15,057 bases of DNA. Source: Piromyces finnis finn. Taxonomy: Eukaryota > Fungi > Neocallimastigomycota. The position numbers and the translations under genes were made by a program. Where the stretch lies: contig MCFH01000217.1 of NCBI GenBank assembly GCA_002104945.1, forward strand, positions 1 through 15,057, in the 5' to 3' direction. Positions 1 through 15,057 of this stretch are shown here, in pieces (position 1 is the stretch's first letter; every line of letters starts with the position of its first letter). The notes under the pieces were generated by a model, which did no database searches, was not told where the DNA came from, and saw only the letters and a list, made by a program, of their open reading frames with translations.

Positions 1-2
1 TA

Positions 3-315
3 AATACAATCGATAAATTATCATTAACCTATCTGTTAAGTTGCCTTAGATATACGCATGGTGAATGCGATAATATAATGTATGTAAATATTGTCGATTC
101 AAATGTAACGAATCACTATGAATGTGGTATTAGTTCCATAAAAGTAATTAATATATTTAAGGAAAAATGGGTTTGAATTAAAAAAGCAATATTCAATCGA
201 AAATTTTCCATTACTAAATGAATATCAAAATAATATTCTTCTTTTCTTAAAGTCATTGAATTTTCAAATACTAATATTCATTAAAAATAAAGAAAAACAA
301 TTAACGAAAATATAA
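3..315 (+). CDS. 3' end of an mRNA capping enzyme, guanine-N7 methyltransferase domain (poxvirus D1/NCLDV-like); 5'-partial, one frameshift near 148-168
   Basis: Manual translation, not in the ORF track. 3-176 reads NTIDKLSLTYLLSCLRYTHGECDNIMYVNIVDSNVTNHYECGISSIKVINIFKE. After a shift at the A5 run (163-167) it continues NGFELKKQYSIENFPLLNEYQNNILLFLKSLNFQILIFIKNKEKQLTKI* (TAA 313-315). The pattern 'E.(G)I...V..IF.E.GF.L' plus terminal 'LNFQILIFIK' resembles the C-terminus of vaccinia D1 as I recall it (EYII...IVRVFNEYGFVL...YYVVYVFSK). The SAM-binding motif would lie outside the window. Similarity judged by eye. Confidence 0.6.
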
Positions 316-761
316 TAAATATATAATAATTATTATTATGATCATTATTATTTCTTCATTTATAATATTTAAAATTTTATTTCAATAAAAGGATTTATAT
401 AAAGATTTTTATTATTTAAAACATATATATATATAAATGAATCTTTAGAAATTATAATAAAATAAATTAAAAAGATTATTAAATATATATATTATTATTT
501 TTTAAAATTCAATTCTATTAACTATACCTATATATATTAAATAAATATATGTATGTATGATTTATTATCTTAATGCATTAGTCTAAAATATATTATGATA
601 TAAATAAATAAATAAATAAAAATTATATATTAAATATGAATTTTAAAATTAAAAAATTTTAAATTGATTTTAGTATATAAATATTATAAACATGTTAAAA
701 CCGTTTTTCTAATAAAAAAAAATAAAATAATATATATTTTATTCAATTAATAAAAACACAA

Positions 762-2924
762 ATGTATCTAGAATTTGATTTATATAGTAATGAACAAATA
801 GAAAAACTTTCCATTCTAATTTCAAAAAAGTATGAATTAACTGATAATACCACGTCATATATATTAGATCCTCAATTACCATGTAAACAATGCAAAAAAG
901 TTATTGAATGTCCTGGCCATTTAGGAAGGATTCCCATTTACCAATACATTGTCCACCCATTATTTGTAAATATATTATGTAAAGAACTTACTCATGTATG
1001 TCCTATTTGTAAAAAATATAATGTTGCTCTTGATGTTAAATCACGATGCTGTGAAACACGAATAAAAGGTACTTCATTTTCCTTGCACAAGTTTAATGTG
1101 AAAAATACCAATTCAAAATCAAAGGGTAAATCAAATAAAAATAGTGAAAATAAATCTCAATCCGAATATGCATTTTTATTTGGAAATCAATGGTTCACCG
1201 TTGTTAGGATGTATGAATTAATTCATACCTTTGATTTCAGTGAAAACCCTGAACTGAAAAATAAAATGCTGAAAGTATTTCTCAAAAATATACCTGTTTT
1301 ACCCATAAATATGAGACCTTCAATTATGGATTCCAACAATATCATGATTCATAATAATATAACATCCATGTATATAAGACTGTTAGATTTAAACTATCAG
1401 TTTAAAAGCAACACCAACCTTATTTCGTATGGTGGATATGGATTAAAAGTATTCAATCTATATAAAAAATTCTTGGAATCCATAGTTCCACCGATACTAC
1501 CGAAAATTCCGATAAAAATTTCATTAAGCAAATATTATCTGGAAAAACAGGAATTTTTAGAAGTATGTGTTTAGCCAAAAGACAAAACTTTTGTCTTCGT
1601 AGCGTCATCGTGCCAAATATAAATATTCCCTTGGACAAAATATTGATACCAAAAGAATTTACAGATCAATTAATTCCCCATGGATATAAGCCAAATGACT
1701 ATGTAATTATTAATAGACAACCTACACTCCAAACTACTTCTATATTATCCGTTCGCTCCTTTCCTAGTAGCAGTCGAACCATCCAAATTAATCCTCTAAT
1801 AGCCAGTGTTTTTCAGGCTGATTTTGACGGAGATGAAATGAATATTTTTGGCTACCAGGAGAGGAATCTAAAAAGGAATTGGCTACTAAACTGAACATTT
1901 CAAATAATATCCGTTCATTTAAGGATGGATCACTCATGATTAAATTTATTCAAGATACCTTAACTGGCTTATACAATATGACAAAGGATCACAGTATTGT
2001 CGAACCCCATATTATCGAAAACATATGTAAACGATTAAAAATATCAAAAAAGGAATGGAATATATTTTGTAAATATTATAAATCACGAATGAATACCGAT
2101 AAAATACCATATAAGCACTTACTTTCATTGTTGATTCCAAAATCACTAACTTTAAAAATGGGTGATAAATATTTAGTAGACCATGGTATTCTACTTCACA
2201 CTATTAATGGTGCCAATCAAACTGTATTGTTAAATTTTATTACTCACTATGGTAACGATTTTTACTTGAAATTTATGTGGGATGTACAACGTATGGTTCA
2301 TGAATACAATTTATTTCACATTATAAGTATTTCCATTTCAGATTGTATACCAGACCCAAGCATTGAAAATGAATTTACATCCATTTTGGAAAAAATTCCT
2401 GACACTTTATCGGCTATACAACTACCAAATTTAGATTCTTCTATTATCTCTCAAGACAAAGATAGTAAAGAAATAAAAAAATAAGAAAGTATTATTTAGA
2501 AAATTATCCATTATTAGAAAGTTTATCTAAATCGATTAGCAATAATCTAACCAATATTGTCAATAGTGGTTCGAAAGGGAAAATCGATAATGTCATTCAA
2601 ATTTTAATGTCAGTAGGAGTTCAAGCCGTTTTGCAAAGTTGCTATATTAAGAGTTCCTATTCCGAAGGACTTACAGCAAAGGAACTATTTATACATTCAA
2701 AATCAGGCCGTGCTGGAATTATTTCAACTTCTCTCAACACTTCTTCTACAGGCTACATGCAAAGAGAACTGGTCAAGAGTATGGAAGACCTTATTACCGA
2801 TAAAGATGGTTTTGTACGTGATTATAATAATGATGAAATCTATTATTATCCTTTTTCTACAAACGTCCAAGATATAGATGATTCATTTTTGGAATATGCT
2901 TTTTCAATGTCGTTAAAAAATTAA
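762..2924 (+). CDS. RPB1: Divergent, reduced RNA polymerase largest-subunit homolog (Rpb1/Rpo1N-like, N-terminus to bridge helix), about 721 aa after repairing three -1 frameshifts; probably viral
   Basis: ORFs 762-1574, 1565-1894, 1879-2484 and 2607-2924 join into one colinear protein. Motifs in order: Zn site CKQC..ECPGHLGRI, CPIC..CC, region B IPVLPINMRPSI, region C ILSGKTGIFRSMCLAKRQNFCLRSVI, NRQPTLQ, catalytic FQADFDGDEMN (1814-1834), IQDTLTGL, NNLTNIVNSGSKG..QILMSVGVQ, SYSEGLT.KELFIHSKSGR, bridge helix TSSTGYMQRELVKSMEDL. Junctions: between 1464 and 1532 (best candidate A6 at 1464-1469), T5 at 1845-1849, and A7 at 2475-2481, each fixed by +1 nt. No in-frame stops remain, no introns, no CTD. 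Confidence 0.93.
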
Positions 2925-3816
2925 TAAGTATTAAATATTTATATTTACATTTATATTTATAAAATTTATATTTATTATATTTGAAAATTTATTTGGTTTT
3001 TATTTATAATTTATAGTAAATAGAAATACATGTATGTAGAACAATAAAATTATAGTTTATTATACTATTATTTAAATAGAATAATAACTTTTTTTTATTT
3101 TATTTTTATGATGACCAATGAAATTAAATTTACTGTATATCTTTCCTTTAATAATACATAATTCACTCTTATTAATTATTATTGTAAAACTAATAAAATT
3201 ATTTAAAATTTAATAATATTTAAAAAAAATAAAAATAAAAATAATTATATAAATTTGTTAATTTGAATTTATAATTGACACTTTGATAATTAAATCTAAA
3301 TATCCTTAAAAACCTTTTATATAATGTAATATTTTTTAAAAAAACAATATTATTATATTATTATATTATTATATTATATATATCTAAAAATTTTAAATAA
3401 TTGAAATATTATATATTTAATATTTCATTTTTTAAAATATAATATATTTCCAAAAGTATTTCCTATGAAAATACTATAAAGAAATAAAAAAAAGTATTTT
3501 TATTTCATTAAATTCATGAACCAATCATAAATAATAGCAACTTTTTTTTTTACATTATTATATTAATGTCAAATGAAAATAAATGACGATTAGTATTGAG
3601 ATATCAAAAATATTTTAATTTTGGAAAAACCATTTTATAAAAACTTTCTCATATCCTTGATTTGTTTTATGAATAATTATTAAAATTAAAATAAAAAATT
3701 ATATTTATTGATAGCTTTATCTTTATAATTTTGATTAATATTAAATATTAAGAAAATTAATAAATAATAAAAGTTAAGAGTGAAAGTGGAAGAAAATAAA
3801 ATTAGTGGTGACGCAC

Positions 3817-4434
3817 ATGTCTTGGGACGATTTCTTTATAAAAAATTCTAAATTAGTATTACATATATATAATCAGTTGAGAAATACTTATTTTACACCA
3901 CCACTGGAAGATGTATTTGGAATCTTCAAGTATGTCAAGTTAAGTGATGTTAAAGTTGTAATGATAGGTGATATGCCGTATAAAAATACTCGAGATATTT
4001 CAGACATAGCTTTTGGATCTAAAAACTGTAATCCACCATTATTATTGGAACGTATTTACAAAAATTTAGAAGATACAGTAGCTACTTTTCAGCGACCATA
4101 CAATCATCACTTAGATAAATGGCTAAATAATGGAATATTTTTATGTAATTTTTGCTTTACACGAACTATTGCTGATCCTTTACCATATCATTATCATTTG
4201 TTATGGGAACCTTTTATTAATAATTTAGTACACTATATTTCAAATGACCATCCTGTTGTTTTTATGCTATTTGGTGCAAAAGCCATTTCGGTTCGAAAGT
4301 CCATTAACGAAATAAAGTCGTCGGTGGTAGAAGTTCCACATCCTATTTATGAATACAATGAATTTAAAAAATCTAAATGCTTTTGTAAGGCCCGAGAACT
4401 TGCTTGTGAACTTGGGTTCACAATCTCATGGTGA
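3817..4434 (+). CDS. UNG: Family-1 uracil-DNA glycosylase homolog with non-canonical catalytic motifs (205 aa from ATG 3817)
   Basis: Motifs: 'YFTPPLEDVFGIF', 'VKVVMIGDMPY' (cf. VKVVILGQDPY), 'DIAF' (GLCF), 'PPLLLERIYKNL' (PPSLENIYKEL), 'WLNNGIFLCN' (WAKQGVLLLN), 'WEPF', 'VFMLFGAKA', 'VPHPI' (HPSPL). The track start GTG 3805 is replaced by the in-frame ATG at 3817 (MSWDDFF). Confidence 0.88.
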   Translation: MSWDDFFIKNSKLVLHIYNQLRNTYFTPPLEDVFGIFKYVKLSDVKVVMIGDMPYKNTRDISDIAFGSKNCNPPLLLERIYKNLEDTVATFQRPYNHHLDKWLNNGIFLCNFCFTRTIADPLPYHYHLLWEPFINNLVHYISNDHPVVFMLFGAKAISVRKSINEIKSSVVEVPHPIYEYNEFKKSKCFCKARELACELGFTISW

Positions 4435-4703
4435 ATAACCCTTATACAAACTACAAAATAATAAATATGACAAGTTAAACTATTTAAAAACTGTATTTTT
4501 TTTAAAAAGAAAAAGAAACATATAAACCATTAAAATCTAAATTGATTTTTTTTTATTTATTTAAAGTAAAAATAAAATTTTGAAATTAATAATTAATAAA
4601 AATAATATTTAATATTAATAAATATTATCAATATTTAAATAAAGACAACAAAAAAAAAAAATAAACTAGATAGTTTAATCCCTTATTATTAATTTAGAAT
4701 AAA

Positions 4704-5297
4704 ATGTTATTCAATATTTTTCTTTTATTACTACCAATTATTAATATGGTATATTCAAATGGTGTTTTCGATTCTGATGCCTTTGACAATTTAAGAAATG
4801 AAATGAACAATTCTGATATCTTTGATAATTTAAAAAATGAAATGAATAATTCTGATATTTTCGACAAATTAAAAGGCGAAATGAATAACAATGATATTAA
4901 TGTTAATTTTAAAACTACTACATCAAATCCAAAAACATTTAAAACTACTGTAACTAAAACTAAAAATAGTACTTCTATTAAAGCCAAATCTACTACTAAT
5001 GGCATTAAATCCAAATCCACTACTACCAAAGTTAATAAAGTAGTCACTTATACAAACACTTTTACTGTTCCTAATAAAACTTATATTGTTGGTACTAAAA
5101 CCTATTATGCTAATAATATTACAACACAGAAAAACCCTTCAATCCCAACTATATTATCTACTGATAAATGTGGAAGTAAATCTGATGGTGTTTATATATG
5201 TAAAAATAATAAATGTTGTAGCAAATATGGTTATTGTGGTACAAGTGATGCTTATTGTAGTACAGGATGCAAACCAAATTATGGAAAATGTTGGTAA
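4704..5297 (+). CDS. Secreted chitin-binding protein: signal peptide, 3x 13-aa acidic repeat, Thr/Lys-rich linker, C-terminal CBM18 (hevein) domain
   Basis: Hydrophobic N-terminus MLFNIFLLLLPIINMVYS. The C-terminal CGSKSDGVYICKNNKCCSKYGYCGTSDAYCSTGCKPNYGKC (5169-5291) has the 8-Cys hevein pattern with CCS.YGYCG. Confidence 0.9.
   Translation: MLFNIFLLLLPIINMVYSNGVFDSDAFDNLRNEMNNSDIFDNLKNEMNNSDIFDKLKGEMNNNDINVNFKTTTSNPKTFKTTVTKTKNSTSIKAKSTTNGIKSKSTTTKVNKVVTYTNTFTVPNKTYIVGTKTYYANNITTQKNPSIPTILSTDKCGSKSDGVYICKNNKCCSKYGYCGTSDAYCSTGCKPNYGKCW
4782..4898 (+). repeat. Three tandem 39-bp coding repeats
   Basis: Units start at 4782, 4821 and 4860 and encode FDNLRNEMNNSDI / FDNLKNEMNNSDI / FDKLKGEMNNNDI. 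Confidence 0.9.
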
Positions 5298-6336: not shown

Positions 6337-7049
6337 TTAATATAAGAATAATAATAAGGTTAAAATTAATAAAGGTAATAAAACAGTAGTAATTTTAGTA
6401 GTAATATAATCGCCTGCATCACTTGTTTCATGAGAAGATTTGCATTTATCAGATTCTAAGAAAGAAATTGAATTTTTGATAGAATTTATATCTTGATAAG
6501 TATAACTTTCAGTAGTAAATGATAAATTTTCGTAAGCAGCAAAGCGGTCGACATTAATTTCTTTGAAAGACTTAATTAAAGATTCAGTACATTTTTTTGA
6601 TTTACATGTGTCTGATAAAGCTTCATCTTCACCAGTTAATGTGATTGCATATATAGAGAATGGACATAACTCATTATTTTCATCGGTGAAACATTTACTT
6701 TCTAAGCCTTGTACTAAATCCCTAATTATAAGGGGTTGCATTGCTTCTACAAATTGAGGAATTTTACTGCAAATTGGGAAGTACTTTAATGGATCATTAT
6801 AGAATGCTTGACATTTTTCAGATTTGATATTAGAGCAAGCTTGTTTATAATTTCCAATAGTAATGATAGGCATACAGTCGTTACTATATTCGGAATTATT
6901 GTTTTCTTCGATACATTCTTCAGAAATAGCACTGGCTTCAGAGTCAACAAAATTATCTCTTTTTAACAAATTAGAAAAAAGGTAGAGTTAGCAAAAGTTG
7001 AAGCTATTGTTGTAATTAAGATAAGTATTAAAAGATTAAAAGTTTTCAT
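6337..7049 (-). CDS. Secreted, probably GPI-anchored Cys-rich protein (10 Cys) of a type common in anaerobic gut fungi; true start 7049, one -1 frameshift
   Basis: ATG 7049 gives MKTFNLLILILITTIASTFANST. Adding one T to the run at about 6975-6980 joins it to LLKRDNFVDSE (dibasic KR). The C-terminus is SDA plus a hydrophobic tail, VLLPLLILTLLLFLY. Repaired length is 237 aa. Confidence 0.82.
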
Positions 7050-7848: not shown

Positions 7849-9039
7849 ATGAACAATATCGAGTATTATAAGAATAAAGAAGATTCAGAGGTAATAAAGT
7901 TGCTTAAACATTACAAAATATATAATGAAGGAAATTTTAATTCTGAAAATATAAAAGAATTAATTTGCAAATTAGTAATGTATGGAGAAGCAAGAAATTT
8001 AAAAATGTATTGAGCGAATTATTTGAAAATTATAGATATGATAGAGATTATGAATTTGATAAACAATTTAGGTTTGACAATGATTTTATAATAACTTACT
8101 TATTTATTACAAAAATAAAACACAGTTTTCGAATAAAGAACTAAAGCTATTATTAATTAAAGAAAAAGAAAAAAGTCTAATTCTATTGTTAATTTTATAT
8201 AGCTGATAGATATATTTTTAATTTTGATTACTATTTTGTTACACCTTTATATATTGCTTGTGTCAGTAATAATGAAGAAATAGTAAAAATGTTATTTGAT
8301 TATGGGGCGAATGTAAATTTCCGAAATAATGTAGGTGAAACAGCTTTATTATATTTATGTAAATGTAATCTTTCTCTTGATATTATAAAATTACTAATTG
8401 ATAAATACAAAGCTAAGAATATGATGTAGATAATTATGGAAATACATTATTACACAAATTTTGTAAAGACGTAGTGATAATGATGTAAAATTATTTAATT
8501 TTTTAATAGAAAAAGGCTTAGATATAAATAAAGTTAATAATGAAGGAAATACTCCATTAATAGAATTGTGTAGGTATACAACAAAATATTTTTATATACC
8601 GTTATTACTGGAAAATGGTGCAGAAATTAATATACGAAATAATAAAGGTGAAACAGCATTACTTGTAACTTGTAAATACGGAGATGATAGATTGGTAAAA
8701 AAATTGGTAGAGTGTGGTGCTGATGTTAATATAGCTGATAATGATGGTAATACACCATTATTAATAAGTTGTCGTGATGATAGTAAGCTTTCTATTTCAA
8801 GGTTAAAGCGATATTTTATTGAGAATGGAGCAGATATAAATAAAGCGAATAAAAATGGAAGAATACCTTTTCATGAATTATGTGAACATGGAAATAATTG
8901 TATAATAAATTATTTCATTGATCATGGAGCAGATATAAATAAAATGGATAATGATGGTAATACTCCATTAAGTATTGCACGTAAGAATCTTAGTGAAAAA
9001 GCTAGTATTAAAAGTTTAATTATCCATGGAGCAAAATAA
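7849..9039 (+). CDS. Ankyrin-repeat protein, multiply frameshifted in this sequence
   Basis: Likely start MNNIEYYK (ATG 7849), with a shift in the A-run near 8001-8005. Ankyrin repeats lie in shifted frames: TPLYIAC..NNEEIVKMLFDYGANVN (from 8241), GETALLYLC, GNTLLH, GNTPLIELC. They continue in ORF 8566-9039: GETALLVTC, GNTPLLISC, GRIPFHELC, GNTPLSIA. About 7-8 repeats. Confidence 0.8.
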
Positions 9040-9249: not shown

Positions 9250-11955
9250 ATGAGAATAATTAAATGGTTTATTCTGATTTTAATAAGTATTACAAAAATA
9301 TATTGTAGTCCTTACAATCATTTAGATATTCAATTAGCATTATTAATTTTATCTGCTGGAGATCATGATGGAAATATAGTTAAGGATGCAAATCTTGAAT
9401 TTATGAAAATTAATATTAGTAAAGATCCAAGTAATAAAGTAGAGAAAGATATAATCGATATTATTCCAAGTTTAAGAGAAATAAGAAAACATGAAAATGA
9501 TATAGAAAGACAAAATCAAAGAATTGAAATCAAATTTAAAGAGTTGTATAAAAAAGCTGAAAAATTAGCTATTCATAGATTAGGATTAACTATTGAGAGC
9601 ACATTATTTGATGCCTTTAGAACTGAAACTAATAATAACAATGTTAATAATAATAACAATGCTGATAATAATAATGAACTGGTTAAAACGCATTTTGAAA
9701 ATTTGGATGTATTTAGAAAATTGAATACTGATGGTATTGGATTAATTAACGGTGAAAATGACATGACTACGTTATCTTTTTATAGAAAAGATAGTAATAT
9801 AAACTCTAATAAAATTAAATTTAGAGATGCTATTAAAAACAATGTTCCTTTTGCACCACAATATGATAATAATCATTCCAACAGTTATATTGTTAATTAT
9901 TTTAAAGATGTAGCATCACAATGTCATCAATTACAAACTTGCAAAATTTTATTTGATAATTCTAATCCAACATACAGTTTAATCAAAGATGATTCTAATG
10001 ATAATTTATATTTTATTGTTAGTCTTAATAATAATATACATGCGTTTCAATTAAAAAATAATAACGGTCAATATATTATGAATAGTTATGACAATGAATC
10101 ATTAAACGATTTAAATGACATAATTCAAGGATATGGTAAATCTTCCAAAAACATATATAATGATGCTTATATTAAAGGGGATGATATTAGTATAATTCCA
10201 GATTGTGGTATAATTCTTACTACTAGAAATATACTTCCAACACAGCAACCACCGTCTTACAATCCTGAGGATTATATAGTTTCAGACGAAATGGTAATAG
10301 AATTGATAATCAATTAAATGAAAAATTATTTGATAGTAATATTATAAAAGCGATGATAATTTATTATGTTATTATTCCAATACAGATTATATTGGTATTG
10401 AAGAAGAGGCATCTAAGTTTATAGAAGCTCGAAGTAATGAACATTCAAATCTTCATAATAAAATCAGCGAATTTAATAGTATGAATATTATATTCCAGAG
10501 ATTATAAAAGAAATAGAAAACAAAGAGTTAAATATGAATAATGTTAATCAAGACATTATAAATATATTAGATACATTTATAAAAGTTTTTCTAAAAACCA
10601 AAAGCAAAAGCAAAATGAAAAGGATGAGTTAAAAAAATTGCTGACTAATGAAATTTATTTTTTAAGTAACCGTGATTTCAAAGTATCTTTTGAAACAAAT
10701 TACCCTACGTTTGATAGTTTAGATGATAATCTAAAATATGAATTGATGGAGTTAAGTACAAGTATCAGTAGTGGTTATGAATCGCATAAAGAAAGGTATG
10801 AAAGAAATCATGAAAGTGATTTAAATAAAATATATAATAACGCGAAAGAAGCACATATAAAAGCGAAATTTGAAGAACAAAAAAAATCAATTTTTGAAAA
10901 TTTTTTTAACGAAAATAAAGACAAATTAAACAAAATGAAGAATACTTATATTAATATAGAAGAAAATCTAAGCAAATATGAAAATTACAAAAATTCAAAT
11001 AGTGAAAAAATATAGATGATTTTGTGCAAGAGAACATTTTTGACTTTATAGATTTCTTAGATAAAAATCGAGTAAAAAAAATTTATAAGCACATTTATAA
11101 TGAATTTAAAAATGGTTATGAAGATGAGAATTACGATGAATTGGAAAAATAGGTAATACAGCTAAAAATAGTGAAATGATGAGAAACTATATATAAATAC
11201 AAACGGAAAATTTTGACAGATTTTATGAAGAGCAAAAAAGTTGTTAATAGAAAGTGAATATGAAAAGCAAGGAGTAGTAAATCAGTTAAAGAAAAAATGA
11301 CAAGTATATTAAATACAAATTATCTGATATAAACAATAGATTAAAATTTTGACAGCTAGAAAAAATACTAAAAACGCTGAAAAGGACGAATTTACAATTA
11401 TTGGGATTTAGCAACCCAAAACTTTATAGAAAAAACCTATCCTGTTAATATAAATATGGAGCAGAAGATAAATATAAGTTTTTAATATTATAAATGATGG
11501 ACCCCATTTATTGAACATTCAGCAGCCAGTAGTTTATCCAAAGTAGCTTATAGTAAGAGTAGTTACAATGCAGTATTCAACCAATGCAAAAATAAATTAG
11601 CGAAAAGAAGTGGAGGTGAATCTTGTAAATTTTGTAATCAATTGAAAGTAGAAACTGATATTCAAATTTCATCCACAACCCTAAAAATCCTAAGAACATT
11701 TAAAGATATGAAATTAGATCCCAACATATTACCAGTTGATACTGATAAATACGATATGAAAGATATAATTCCTTATATAAAGGTGCTAACTCAATGGATA
11801 ATTATGGAGTAATATTGTTAAGACGTATACTGAAACCAAGATTTATTTGATAAAGAACAAATGAAGATTGTCAGTAAGTTAATAATATAGTTAATGATTA
11901 CGTTTTAGTATTAAGAGATTCTAAATATGCAAATAAAATAGTGATATTAAAATAA
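9250..11955 (+). CDS. Large secreted protein of unknown function (about 900 aa if repaired), Asn/Glu/Lys-rich coiled-coil middle; many frameshifts after 10290; 3' extent uncertain
   Basis: Signal-like MRIIKWFILILISITKIYCS at ATG 9250. ORF 9199-10317 continues via +1 repairs into DENGNRIDNQLNEKLF..., PEIIKEIENKEL..., ORF 10638-11015, NIDDFVQENIFDF..., and FIEHSAASSLSKVAYSKSSYNAVFNQCKNKLAKRSGGESCKFCNQLK (about 11508-11810). The last coding-like stretch ends at TAA 11953-11955. Continuity across 11150-11510 is poorly resolved. Confidence 0.6.
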
Positions 11956-12180: not shown

Positions 12181-12640
12181 CCCACAATGAATATCCGACA
12201 TTTATTATTGATAATCTTGCTAATCCATTGCTAATATATTTCTTCTATTAATCTTATTACCATTACCAGCTAAATTGTAAAAAAAGTAGCCTAATGCTAA
12301 TAATATCATCCATTCACCAATCGATTATACCATCATCTAAATATCTACATGAACTTTTTATATCATAAAAATACATCACGAACAATTTTTTATAGTTCAA
12401 AATTCTATATTAAAATCATATAATATTTTGTATAATTTTTTAGCACTTAAATTTTCTGGTATTTGTATATACTTGTTTTGTTAATCAATTGTTTGTTTTT
12501 TAACTATTTGCAAAGTTTATTACAATGTCTTATATTGATTATAATAATTAATTGAATCCAATTGTTTAGGTAATCTTCACCAAAAAATAACACAACCATT
12601 ATCCCTACTTCAATATTTTATTTATTTGACTATTTGACAT
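12181..12640 (-). pseudogene. Degraded coding-like remnant, family unassigned
   Basis: Locally higher GC, with minus-strand fragments IGEWMILLALGYFFYNLAGNGNKINRRNILAMD (about 12222-12321) and IQIPENLSAKKLYKILYDFNIEF (about 12400-12470), broken by stops and shifts. Confidence 0.25.
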
Positions 12641-13666
12641 ATATTGTGAATTTCAGTGACATTAATATGAAATATTATATTTTACGTAAATTATGTTAAA
12701 AGTTTTTTTTTTAATAAATATCTCTCTATTTTGAAAATTCAATATATAGTATTTATTTTCCCCAGACAATAATATTATTTTTATTTTCATAAAATCTTTC
12801 TTTTCCTTTTATAAATTCTGTTGGTGTACTTTTTCAATTTATTATTTTATTATTCATTTATTTAAAAAGTAGGTTTATGTTAATAATTAATATAATAAAT
12901 AATTTAATTCGATTGAAATAATTAAATAATGAATAATAAAATAAATAATAAATATTAATAATTATTATATTAATAATATCATTCGTACATTTACATTTTT
13001 AAATATAAATAAATTATATTTGTATACATTTACAGAATATAAATATAAATGTAATAAAAAATTGTAATATAATAATGAAATACTCAATTAATAAATATAA
13101 ATATAGAAAATAAAATAATAAAAGTTGACTTTTACAAAAACAAATAAAAAGCCATTAAAATAATATATAATAATAAAATATAATAATATCTATTTAAAAA
13201 GAAATAGAATAGAAAATTATTTGGATTATTAATAAATATTACTAGGACACACCATGATTATTACTACTATAAATTTTATAACCACAGATTGCTATTATCA
13301 TAATTCCTTAGGTTATTATTACAAAATTATTAATTAATGCCATAATTATTAAATAAAAAAATTATATATACACTAAATAATGACACATAAAAACATTAAA
13401 CATTGTAACTATCCAAAGTTTTGAAAAATACAAAGAAAACTACATTTTAAAATCAAATACATTCAGCAACCAATGGAATAGATATTTGATACAATATACA
13501 TCCATTGTATACGTTGTATATTTGGCCAATAAAACAAAGGACTTTGTATGTAATGTGCATGAATATTAAAAAATAATTATACAAATTAGAAAAATCATTT
13601 TTAAATAGGTAAAAGTTAAGCAAGTAAAAAGTATATAACAGGAAGCAATAATAAAGTAATAAAAGT

Positions 13667-14127: not shown

Positions 14128-14355
14128 TAATTGATAATATATAAAAATAATATTGAAAATATTTAATGTCATAATAAATTAGAACTAACAATTCCTTTTT
14201 TTTTTTTCTTTTGTAAAATACTCTTGTAAAATATAATCTAAATCTTTTAACTTTTCTTACTAAACAACAAACAACAGTGTATCCCATTTATCTCATGGAA
14301 AAGTTTTGAATATGGTATCATTGTCTTCGGTAGGTCCTATTTTAATTGAATCTAT

Positions 14356-15057
14356 TTATAAATCAACATTATTATTAAGAGCGTAAAAATCATCTTCAAT
14401 CGTTAAAGACGTTGGATCTCTAAAATTAAGTAAAACATACGCACCTCTTATTTCAGTAATAGAGGGGATTAAATAGAAATCCGATATCTTTGAATAATCT
14501 GGAAATGTTTTATCCATACTCAAATAAAAATTTACCAGTTTTGTCACAAAGTATTTGATAGTTTCATTTCTATCTGGAAGAGGAATTTCTACTTTCTTTA
14601 AAAGTTTAACCGGATTAAACACTCAACTTTACTTTTACACGAGGTGGCAGACTTTAACCCTTTAATTTTTACTTCTTCATACTGATAATAGGAATAGACA
14701 AAGGTAAACTTATCATAATATTCATTATATATTTCTGTATCATTTTGTTTGTTAAATTCATGAACAAAATCAACAGCTTCGAAAAAATTAAAAGTGTCTT
14801 CATCATCATGGATGGTATAGGTGTGAGAACCGAACTTTAGAGTAATATCAAAAGATATCAATACTCTATTCTTTGTTAAATCAACCATAGTATTTGCTTC
14901 AAGTAAAATATAAATATATAGGTGGTATCCTTTTTAACCGCCATCTGGATATTGCTTGTTTCAGTAAATTTATCATTGGAGGTCCAATCATCTGATTTGC
15001 CATTGAGTACCATAATTTTATGATCATCAGTATAGGGAAAAAAAACTAAGTCAAAGT
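14356..15057 (-). CDS. Hypothetical protein, 5'-partial (enters from the right edge), two -1 frameshifts
   Basis: Open from the window end: FDLVFFPYTDDHKIMVLNGKSDDWTSNDKFTETSNIQMAVKKDTTYIFIF. Adding T near 14905-14908 joins LLEANT plus ORF 14598-14888. Adding T near 14617-14619 (VECFNPVK) joins ORF 14356-14622. Coding-like text (IDSIKIGPTEDNDTIFKTFP) follows the TAA in frame. No family recognised. Confidence 0.6.

Follow-up and report, generated by a model that had tools for sequence, protein, structure and literature searches.

A capping-enzyme, split RNA polymerase and uracil-DNA glycosylase triplet in Piromyces finnis very probably belongs to a fundsalphavirus, a compact relative of pitho-like giant viruses

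The stretch of DNA considered here, positions 1 to 15,057 of contig MCFH01000217.1 of the gut fungus Piromyces finnis (hereafter the window), is strongly AT-rich (GC 0.10-0.33 per 500 bases) and opens with three plus-strand genes without introns that fill its first 4.4 kb: the tail of an mRNA capping enzyme, the N-terminal half of the largest RNA polymerase subunit (RP1n) and a uracil-DNA glycosylase (UDG) (Table 1). They are discussed below as part of a fundsalphavirus, a group of virus-derived elements already reported from this species. A preliminary description made from the letters alone had called them a tandem, co-oriented, intronless triplet of a cap methyltransferase end, an Rpb1-type subunit and a UNG homolog; all three gene calls were correct, and profile and PDB searches with these proteins or their full-length relatives upheld the polymerase, capping and UDG identities.

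Table 1. Features of the 15,057-nt window
Feature	Position	Strand	Basis or remark
Capping enzyme, C-terminal ~93 codons, cap methyltransferase domain	3..284	+	Start before window; breaks near 163, 231
RP1n, N-half of split RNA polymerase largest subunit	762..2924	+	Breaks near 1463, 1844, 2474
RP1n catalytic motif QADFDGDE	1814..1837	+	Sequence and family alignment
Uracil-DNA glycosylase, UNG fold, intact	3817..4434	+	Sequence and predicted fold
Secreted-looking protein with C-terminal CBM18	4704..5297	+	Pfam Chitin_bind_1; possible element cargo
Cys-rich open reading frame, hydrophobic C-terminus, apparently broken near 5' end	6337-7049	-	No meaningful Pfam match
Ankyrin-repeat gene, several frame pieces	7850-9039	+	Pfam; GC at third codon positions (GC3) 0.095
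Long degraded Asn/Lys-rich coding region, signal-like start	9250-11900	+	No family match
Frame-broken coding-like stretches, GC about 0.3	12200-12700 and 14250-15057	-	Two pieces: no Pfam match

The polymerase gene is read in four frame pieces that match Pfam Rpb1 domains 1 to 5 and are 99-100% identical to an intact P. finnis protein (P0062). RP1n retains the clamp cysteines, the active site and the bridge helix, and its open reading frame (ORF) stops about 52 residues past the bridge helix, much as archaeal A' ends soon after it, leaving a half-length protein (721 aa) with no C-terminal tail. The complementary half, RP1c, lies outside the window, and the split is judged from the RP1n end and from family sizes: none of 28 RP1n matches exceeds 776 aa in a search spanning 351-2000 aa, 14 of them being 692-776 aa long, and the split is thus a family trait. 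The protein is also shortened internally. The motif spacing across the dock region is 45 aa in all nine family rows, and in the compact clade described below it has a median of 52 aa in 21 of 28 measurable rows, whereas 13 of 14 archaeal rows have 101-111 and all 78 other viral rows 97-309; archaea and other giant viruses sit at about 102, although 2 of 97 other rows are short too. In S. pombe Rpb1 the missing stretch corresponds to residues ~381-436, which we take to be the dock domain that binds TFIIB. As far as the alignment can tell, RP1n is without the dock region, which would make initiation without TFIIB docking likely. In the catalytic motif, all 17 family rows have Q where N is usual.

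The capping piece has no match by Pfam alone; it matches the methyltransferase fragment P0075 with 100% identity over 95% of its 57 residues, and P0077, a full-length family member of 799 aa, with 67% identity. P0077 contains the motifs ExExR, KTDG, DxE, DGxI, RxDK and DxGxGxGGD, which we assign to triphosphatase, guanylyltransferase (KTDG) and methyltransferase; it gives weak Pfam matches to mRNA_cap_C and methyltransferases, has cap N7 methyltransferases as its best PDB matches (E 0.012), and can be aligned at each motif with three capping-type proteins of related elements, its single-sequence fold being of low confidence (predicted local distance difference test, pLDDT, 33). Judged by these motifs, the piece in the window is the tail of a predicted three-domain mRNA capping enzyme family. 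The UDG is an intact ORF of 205 aa whose best PDB match is E. coli UNG (E 4e-22) and whose model (pLDDT 83) reaches a template modelling (TM) score of about 0.79 to UNG. It retains the UNG fold and the Asn and His of the UNG family 1 motifs (GQDPY, Asn, HPSP), and in 18 of 18 gut-fungal rows its first motif (3970-3987) reads GDxPY, replacing GQDPY, and the position normally held by the catalytic Asp varies. It is possible that such a UDG has an altered chemistry or a role in processivity. The UDG of one environmental relative, L168, has GQEPY.

Five frame breaks (163, 231, 1463, 1844 and 2474) interrupt the first two genes. Because all lie within single-letter runs, and because public contigs keep the frame (in 4 of 4 runs at 1463 and 1844, 3 of 4 at 2474 and 1 of 4 at 163 and 231), they are likely to be assembly errors, or else the property of one copy among intact sisters. 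A contig over 1321-2584 shows 4 other letters and 3 gaps relative to the window, and one contig joins the UDG end to the region upstream of the CBM18 gene (4323-4680) with no other letters and one gap; contig depths were not taken as copy numbers and give a weak hint only. The UDG family numbers 32 matches among 97 candidates and the RP1n family 28 among 1024, and every named match is gut-fungal (Piromyces, Neocallimastix, Anaeromyces, Orpinomyces/Pecoramyces). Homologues named as P. finnis lie on 11 contigs of distinct length at 68-100% identity, many of the gene models being shortened. Differences between copies of the coding pieces fall at codon position 3 in 26 of 40 cases (p 4e-5; the 40 best supported of 577), and nonsynonymous divergence (dN) is 0.24-0.29 against a synonymous divergence (dS) of 1.5-2.3 for three of four loci, the fourth being saturated. 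By these substitution patterns the copies have diverged under purifying selection. Intact relatives were traced on 30 Logan contigs for RP1n (P0035 cluster) and 44 for UDG (P0070 cluster), which reach 42,490 bases and are candidates for a complete element.

The triplet belongs, almost certainly, to a fundsalphavirus, the group named after a screen of 1,006 fungal genomes (Gong et al., 2020; PMC7017919) and credited, in the accessible part of that paper, with D5, D6/D11 helicase, S-adenosylmethionine (SAM) methyltransferase, RPB2, RPB5, RP1n and RP1c genes. The P. finnis loci of its Fig. S2, taken here as extracted figure text, run UDG-RP1n-AdoMet-RPB2-D5-POL-RP1c-helicase, which is the order in the window reversed, and one of them has Ank_2 and ChtBD1 ahead. 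Protein P0037 agrees with the window pieces in 620 of 620 residues and P0068 in 201 of 205, and both lie on one P. finnis contig of 168,386 bp, a length shared by one Fig. S2 scaffold, whose locus is given as UDG-RP1n-AdoMet-RPB2...D5-POL-RP1c. The RP1 split, the SAM methyltransferase and UDG beside RP1n, and the RP1n match to the published locus are thus all present. The lineage is accordingly known already, named in 2020 from the same species with the same gene order and preceded by related moss elements described in 2014, so that the suggestion of an undescribed lineage falls, while the earlier interpretation was otherwise mostly right. For the Physcomitrella patens elements, which Gong et al. 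place within the group, the available text of Maumus et al. (2014; PMC4083422) reports RP1 fission, a very small gene set and no capsid or ATPase, and leaves open whether such tiny core-gene sets are helper-dependent viruses, fragments or something else. PMC7017919, as far as available, found neither host-element co-speciation nor shared flanking host genes, and regards the elements as fossils of viruses.

A profile search over 1.84 billion proteins added a second tier of RP1n relatives of 620-810 aa, including Sphagnum, Gaertneriomyces and Geranomyces proteins. One compact clade was recovered by FastTree (235 rows; support 94) and by IQ-TREE, both from 44 of the 235 rows (17 rows at 100/100) and from 46 rows in an independent MAFFT alignment (16 rows; Shimodaira-Hasegawa-like approximate likelihood ratio test, SH-aLRT, 100). 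In the MAFFT tree the rows from Sphagnum and Gaertneriomyces form the sister group of the gut-fungal family (96), a node unsettled in the 44-row tree, and the compact clade is sister to L094/L259, at 97/98 in the 44-row tree (without L259) and 94 in the MAFFT tree. We take the sister-group rows to be pitho-like viruses (Pimascovirales), one 589-kb isolate record presumably being a cedratvirus. No mirusvirus link was seen in these trees, which contained no rows labelled as mirusviruses. Scans of IMG/VR with the UDG alignment and with P0077 gave no relative; with the RP1n alignment, IMG/VR gave distant giant virus only, GTDB archaeal RpoA' only, and metagenomes 4 single-gene contigs.

The same trees bear on the proposal that the triplet consists of diverged host genes (Pol II, Abd1, Ung1), or that the contig is a chimera or contaminant, which we consider extremely improbable. 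The best PDB matches are indeed cellular (Pol II, RNMT and UNG), in a bank poor in comparable viral proteins. However, placing the family together with four Pol II-type rows lowers the log-likelihood by 110 units, and the approximately unbiased (AU) test (p-AU 1e-49) rejects nesting in fungal nuclear Pol II, and the protein is half-length without a tail. Chimerism is contradicted by homologues on P. finnis contigs of 0.12-1.65 Mb and by the contig that joins the UDG end to the CBM18 upstream region. An endogenised element of giant-virus (Nucleocytoviricota) origin, as had been proposed from the letters, therefore stands.

Five IMG/VR loci fall in the compact clade (L166, L168, L183, L198 and L219, the last via 95% identity to L183), and these environmental elements are 17-52 kb long with gene-dense core cassettes. 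L168 (17,008/17,243 bases) encodes RP1c, RPB2, RP1n, a TFIIS-like zinc ribbon, UDG, RPB5, DUF5757, PolB and a flap endonuclease, in the order that PMC7017919 draws for the moss element; the ORFs of this stretch (L168:434-14628) are intact, and it may represent a form of the moss 'virus' that still exists. L166, covered for half of a 40-kb contig, encodes RP1n, DUF5757, a capping enzyme, DUF2738, D5, a flap endonuclease and PolB, and both PolB proteins match Pfam DNA_pol_B with an exonuclease. L183 and L219 share a capping enzyme, a helicase, RP1n, UDG and a secreted-looking mannose-binding lectin protein of 1,138-1,257 aa, and L198, on a 52-kb contig, has another lectin protein. RPB2 is a separate gene in L168 and L198. 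Separately, a set of viral contigs (L218, L222, L225, L228, L233 and L236-L243) carries a beta-prime-like gene that is split and divergent (~900 aa) and that in L222 precedes a 1,002-aa ORF amid phage-like neighbours; this group is apparently unrelated to the gut-fungal element.

The explanation we favour, and hold to be reasonably probable, is a compact element, derived from pitho-like giant viruses, that likely produces and caps its messages outside the nucleus, likely has no capsid and integrates repeatedly. It builds on the gene identities, the RP1 split, the dock loss, the many copies per genome, the selection and the clade described above, and on sister loci in which, according to the available portion of PMC7017919, RPB2, RP1c, a D6/D11-like helicase, PolB and D5 adjoin these genes. 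A minimal polymerase of RP1n, RP1c and RPB2 would initiate without docking of a TFIIB-type factor, the transcripts being capped by the element's own capping enzyme, while PolB, D5 and UDG would copy and clean its DNA. Possession of its own kit for replication and for transcription, the latter with the helicase beside the polymerase subunits and the capping enzyme, would point to a cytoplasmic phase, and the element may be passed on inside hyphae and zoospores without virions, with copies entering chromosomes repeatedly, from time to time; secreted lectin genes would be cargo that aids persistence or spread.

Chief among the alternatives is a larger virus, or a helper-dependent one, whose capsid genes went unseen. 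The cassette would then be the core block of a larger, virion-bearing pitho-like virus or of a helper-dependent satellite, either the only block kept or accompanied by a capsid too divergent to match, which we judge possible but doubtful. The sister group in both trees consists of ordinary giant viruses, L198 sits on a 52-kb contig with extra giant-virus genes, the accessible text of PMC7017919 treats the elements as virus fossils, and that of PMC4083422 counts dependence on a helper and repeated insertion out of larger genomes among the options. Against this, gut fungi, Mortierella, moss and environmental contigs all show this densely packed set of core genes, no list covered here gives a capsid or A32 match for it, and the core proteins examined are all shortened, RP1n being ~720 aa compared with ~900-1000 in the sister group. 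A capsid profile, made from 37 matches in 227 viral loci (mostly one giant-virus group), had no match in the window or in the five partial relative loci (best E 0.18), which were covered for 20 of 40, 22 of 35, 22 of 52 and 14 of 17 kb. No A32 packaging ATPase was seen in the window or these loci, no dedicated A32 profile having been run; none of 14 fundsalphavirus hosts is listed in the capsid or A32 trees (Figs S9-S10) of PMC7017919 in its accessible form, and the moss element is likewise without a capsid in the available text of PMC4083422.

It is also conceivable, though unlikely, that the fungus has long since domesticated the genes and now uses them in its nucleus, their spread being due to segmental duplication or retrotransposons. 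Homologues in four gut-fungal genera and purifying selection on the copies would suit this, as would the long terminal repeat (LTR) retroelements flanking several Fig. S2 loci in the extracted text of PMC7017919. However, within-species copies range from 68% to 100% identical with many gene models truncated, the accessible part of PMC7017919 reports no host-element co-speciation and no common flanking host genes, and it is not obvious why genes residing in the nucleus would require a polymerase and capping enzyme of their own, an argument made in the available text of PMC4083422.

Several points nonetheless weigh against a compact, capsid-less, self-transcribing element. The window begins within the capping gene, and RPB2, RP1c, PolB and D5 are documented in sister loci only; a free form, a cytoplasmic location and the enzyme activities are all putative. 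The absence of a capsid is a weak result, since a divergent capsid would escape the profile and the relative loci are partial, and neither terminal repeats nor an integrase were seen within the 15,057 nt, the repeats there being only low-complexity and coding. Dock loss is partial in one branch (spacing 87 aa in L183, L198 and L219), and L198 has a MutS-HNH and a second helicase, as in larger giant viruses. The trees have to contend with a long branch, odd composition, the simple LG+G4 model and rows dropped by hand for speed, with Pol I and Pol III rows not knowingly among them, and the codon-position count draws on a selected fraction of the differences. Finally, the moss copies are reported to be silent and methylated (PMC4083422).

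A bolder extension of the favoured explanation, which we offer tentatively and would not yet expect to hold, is that fundsalphaviruses are living, capsid-less cytoplasmic elements of 20-50 kb, giant viruses reduced to plasmids, with a dock-less polymerase and lectin or killer-type cargo, present in early fungi and mosses, still integrating in gut fungi; virus-like elements of the yeast type would then have had two independent origins. The lineage has been published yet little followed up, and as intact, near-identical copies exist in a culturable fungus, the open question is directly testable. A free capsid-less form, if true, would be a giant virus reduced to a plasmid; it would provide a Pol II-like polymerase of very small size and perhaps an expression system native to gut fungi.

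Among the neighbouring genes, the preliminary description had named fungal-type CBM18 and glycosylphosphatidylinositol (GPI) genes; the first is borne out on the plus strand (Pfam Chitin_bind_1, E 2e-9), and the 'GPI' label on the minus strand (6337-6987) is unconfirmed because it has no meaningful Pfam match. The CBM18 protein has a hydrophobic N-terminus, three 13-residue repeats, a Thr/Lys-rich linker and a C-terminal chitin-binding domain, and its gene may be element cargo rather than host flank. In the extracted text of Fig. S2 (PMC7017919), 9 of the 41 gut-fungal rows place ChtBD1 directly next to a core gene, and in the Zancudomyces row LysM-ChtBD1-GH18_zymocin_alpha adjoins POL; against cargo, the GC3 of the CBM18 gene (0.15) is nearer the downstream genes (0.10-0.19) than the core genes (0.22-0.28). 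Secreted-looking proteins also lie amid core genes in the environmental loci (L183:5613-9383, L219:6078-9491, L198:1766-4120 and 16382-17860), three of them with mannose-binding lectin domains. Their Ser/Thr-rich stretches resemble those of pore-formers, a likeness no tool supported. The two frame-broken minus-strand stretches at the far end gave no match to ORFs of the related loci, and AAATTGA, which precedes RP1n and CBM18 but recurs at 5 further positions, was not used as evidence. Two N. californiae rows in the accessible figure text of PMC7017919 read as circular permutations of one order, one 40,310-bp contig starting in POL, which hints at a circular or concatemeric form, in so far as extracted figure text can be relied on.

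The closest known system is the fundsalphaviruses themselves, with the same species, the same UDG-RP1n-methyltransferase order, the split RP1 and a sister copy without a difference in 620 residues; PMC7017919 speaks of 'SAM', and its accessible part describes no three-domain capping enzyme, dock loss, intact copies, lectin cargo or capsid-less life. The present data add the dock loss, the compact clade next to pitho-like viruses, purifying selection, the capsid negative and the recurring lectin genes. No capsid-less, active or dock-less class is described among the matches listed, which did not extend to subscription papers, nor in the available part of PMC12142844. The P. patens regions (PMC4083422, as available) have split RP1n/RP1c, UDG, a capping methyltransferase and ~13 kb of dense core genes with no capsid or packaging ATPase; L168 shares their gene order and a Sphagnum RP1n is placed beside the gut-fungal family, but the moss copies are reported as silent, methylated fossils whereas the gut-fungal copies include intact, near-identical ones. 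The Mycodnaviridae (PMC13533422) are likewise giant-virus DNA integrated in zoosporic fungi; however, they were found via capsid genes and reach ~350 kb, and the available main text contains neither RNA polymerase nor gut fungi. Pitho-like viruses are sister in the RP1n trees, under labels taken from record lengths, and in the accessible PolB tree of PMC7017919. Most rows of that sister group likewise end after the bridge helix, but their genomes span hundreds of kb and their RP1n of ~900-1000 aa keeps the dock region. Pitho-like giant viruses form virions. The yeast virus-like elements are not known to have a capsid and carry chitin-binding killer cargo, and pGKL2 has a protein-primed PolB and terminal inverted repeats. 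The accessible text on pGKL1/pGKL2 (Sykora et al., 2018; PMC6211774) describes a reduced polymerase of their own, a three-domain capping enzyme, a D6/D11-like helicase and, in pGKL2, a largest subunit split at a similar place, but also a beta subunit fused with part of beta-prime that groups near poxviruses. RP1n of the window, in contrast, is a stand-alone protein with its own start and clamp, and its relatives have conventional PolB and D5. A yeast-type linear element, one of the groups named for comparison at the outset, is therefore excluded by the lack of a beta/beta-prime fusion and by the conventional PolB of the relatives. P0077 and three relatives nevertheless carry what appear to be the motifs of a three-domain, pGKL2-type capping enzyme, and by analogy the element likely works as the yeast virus-like elements do.

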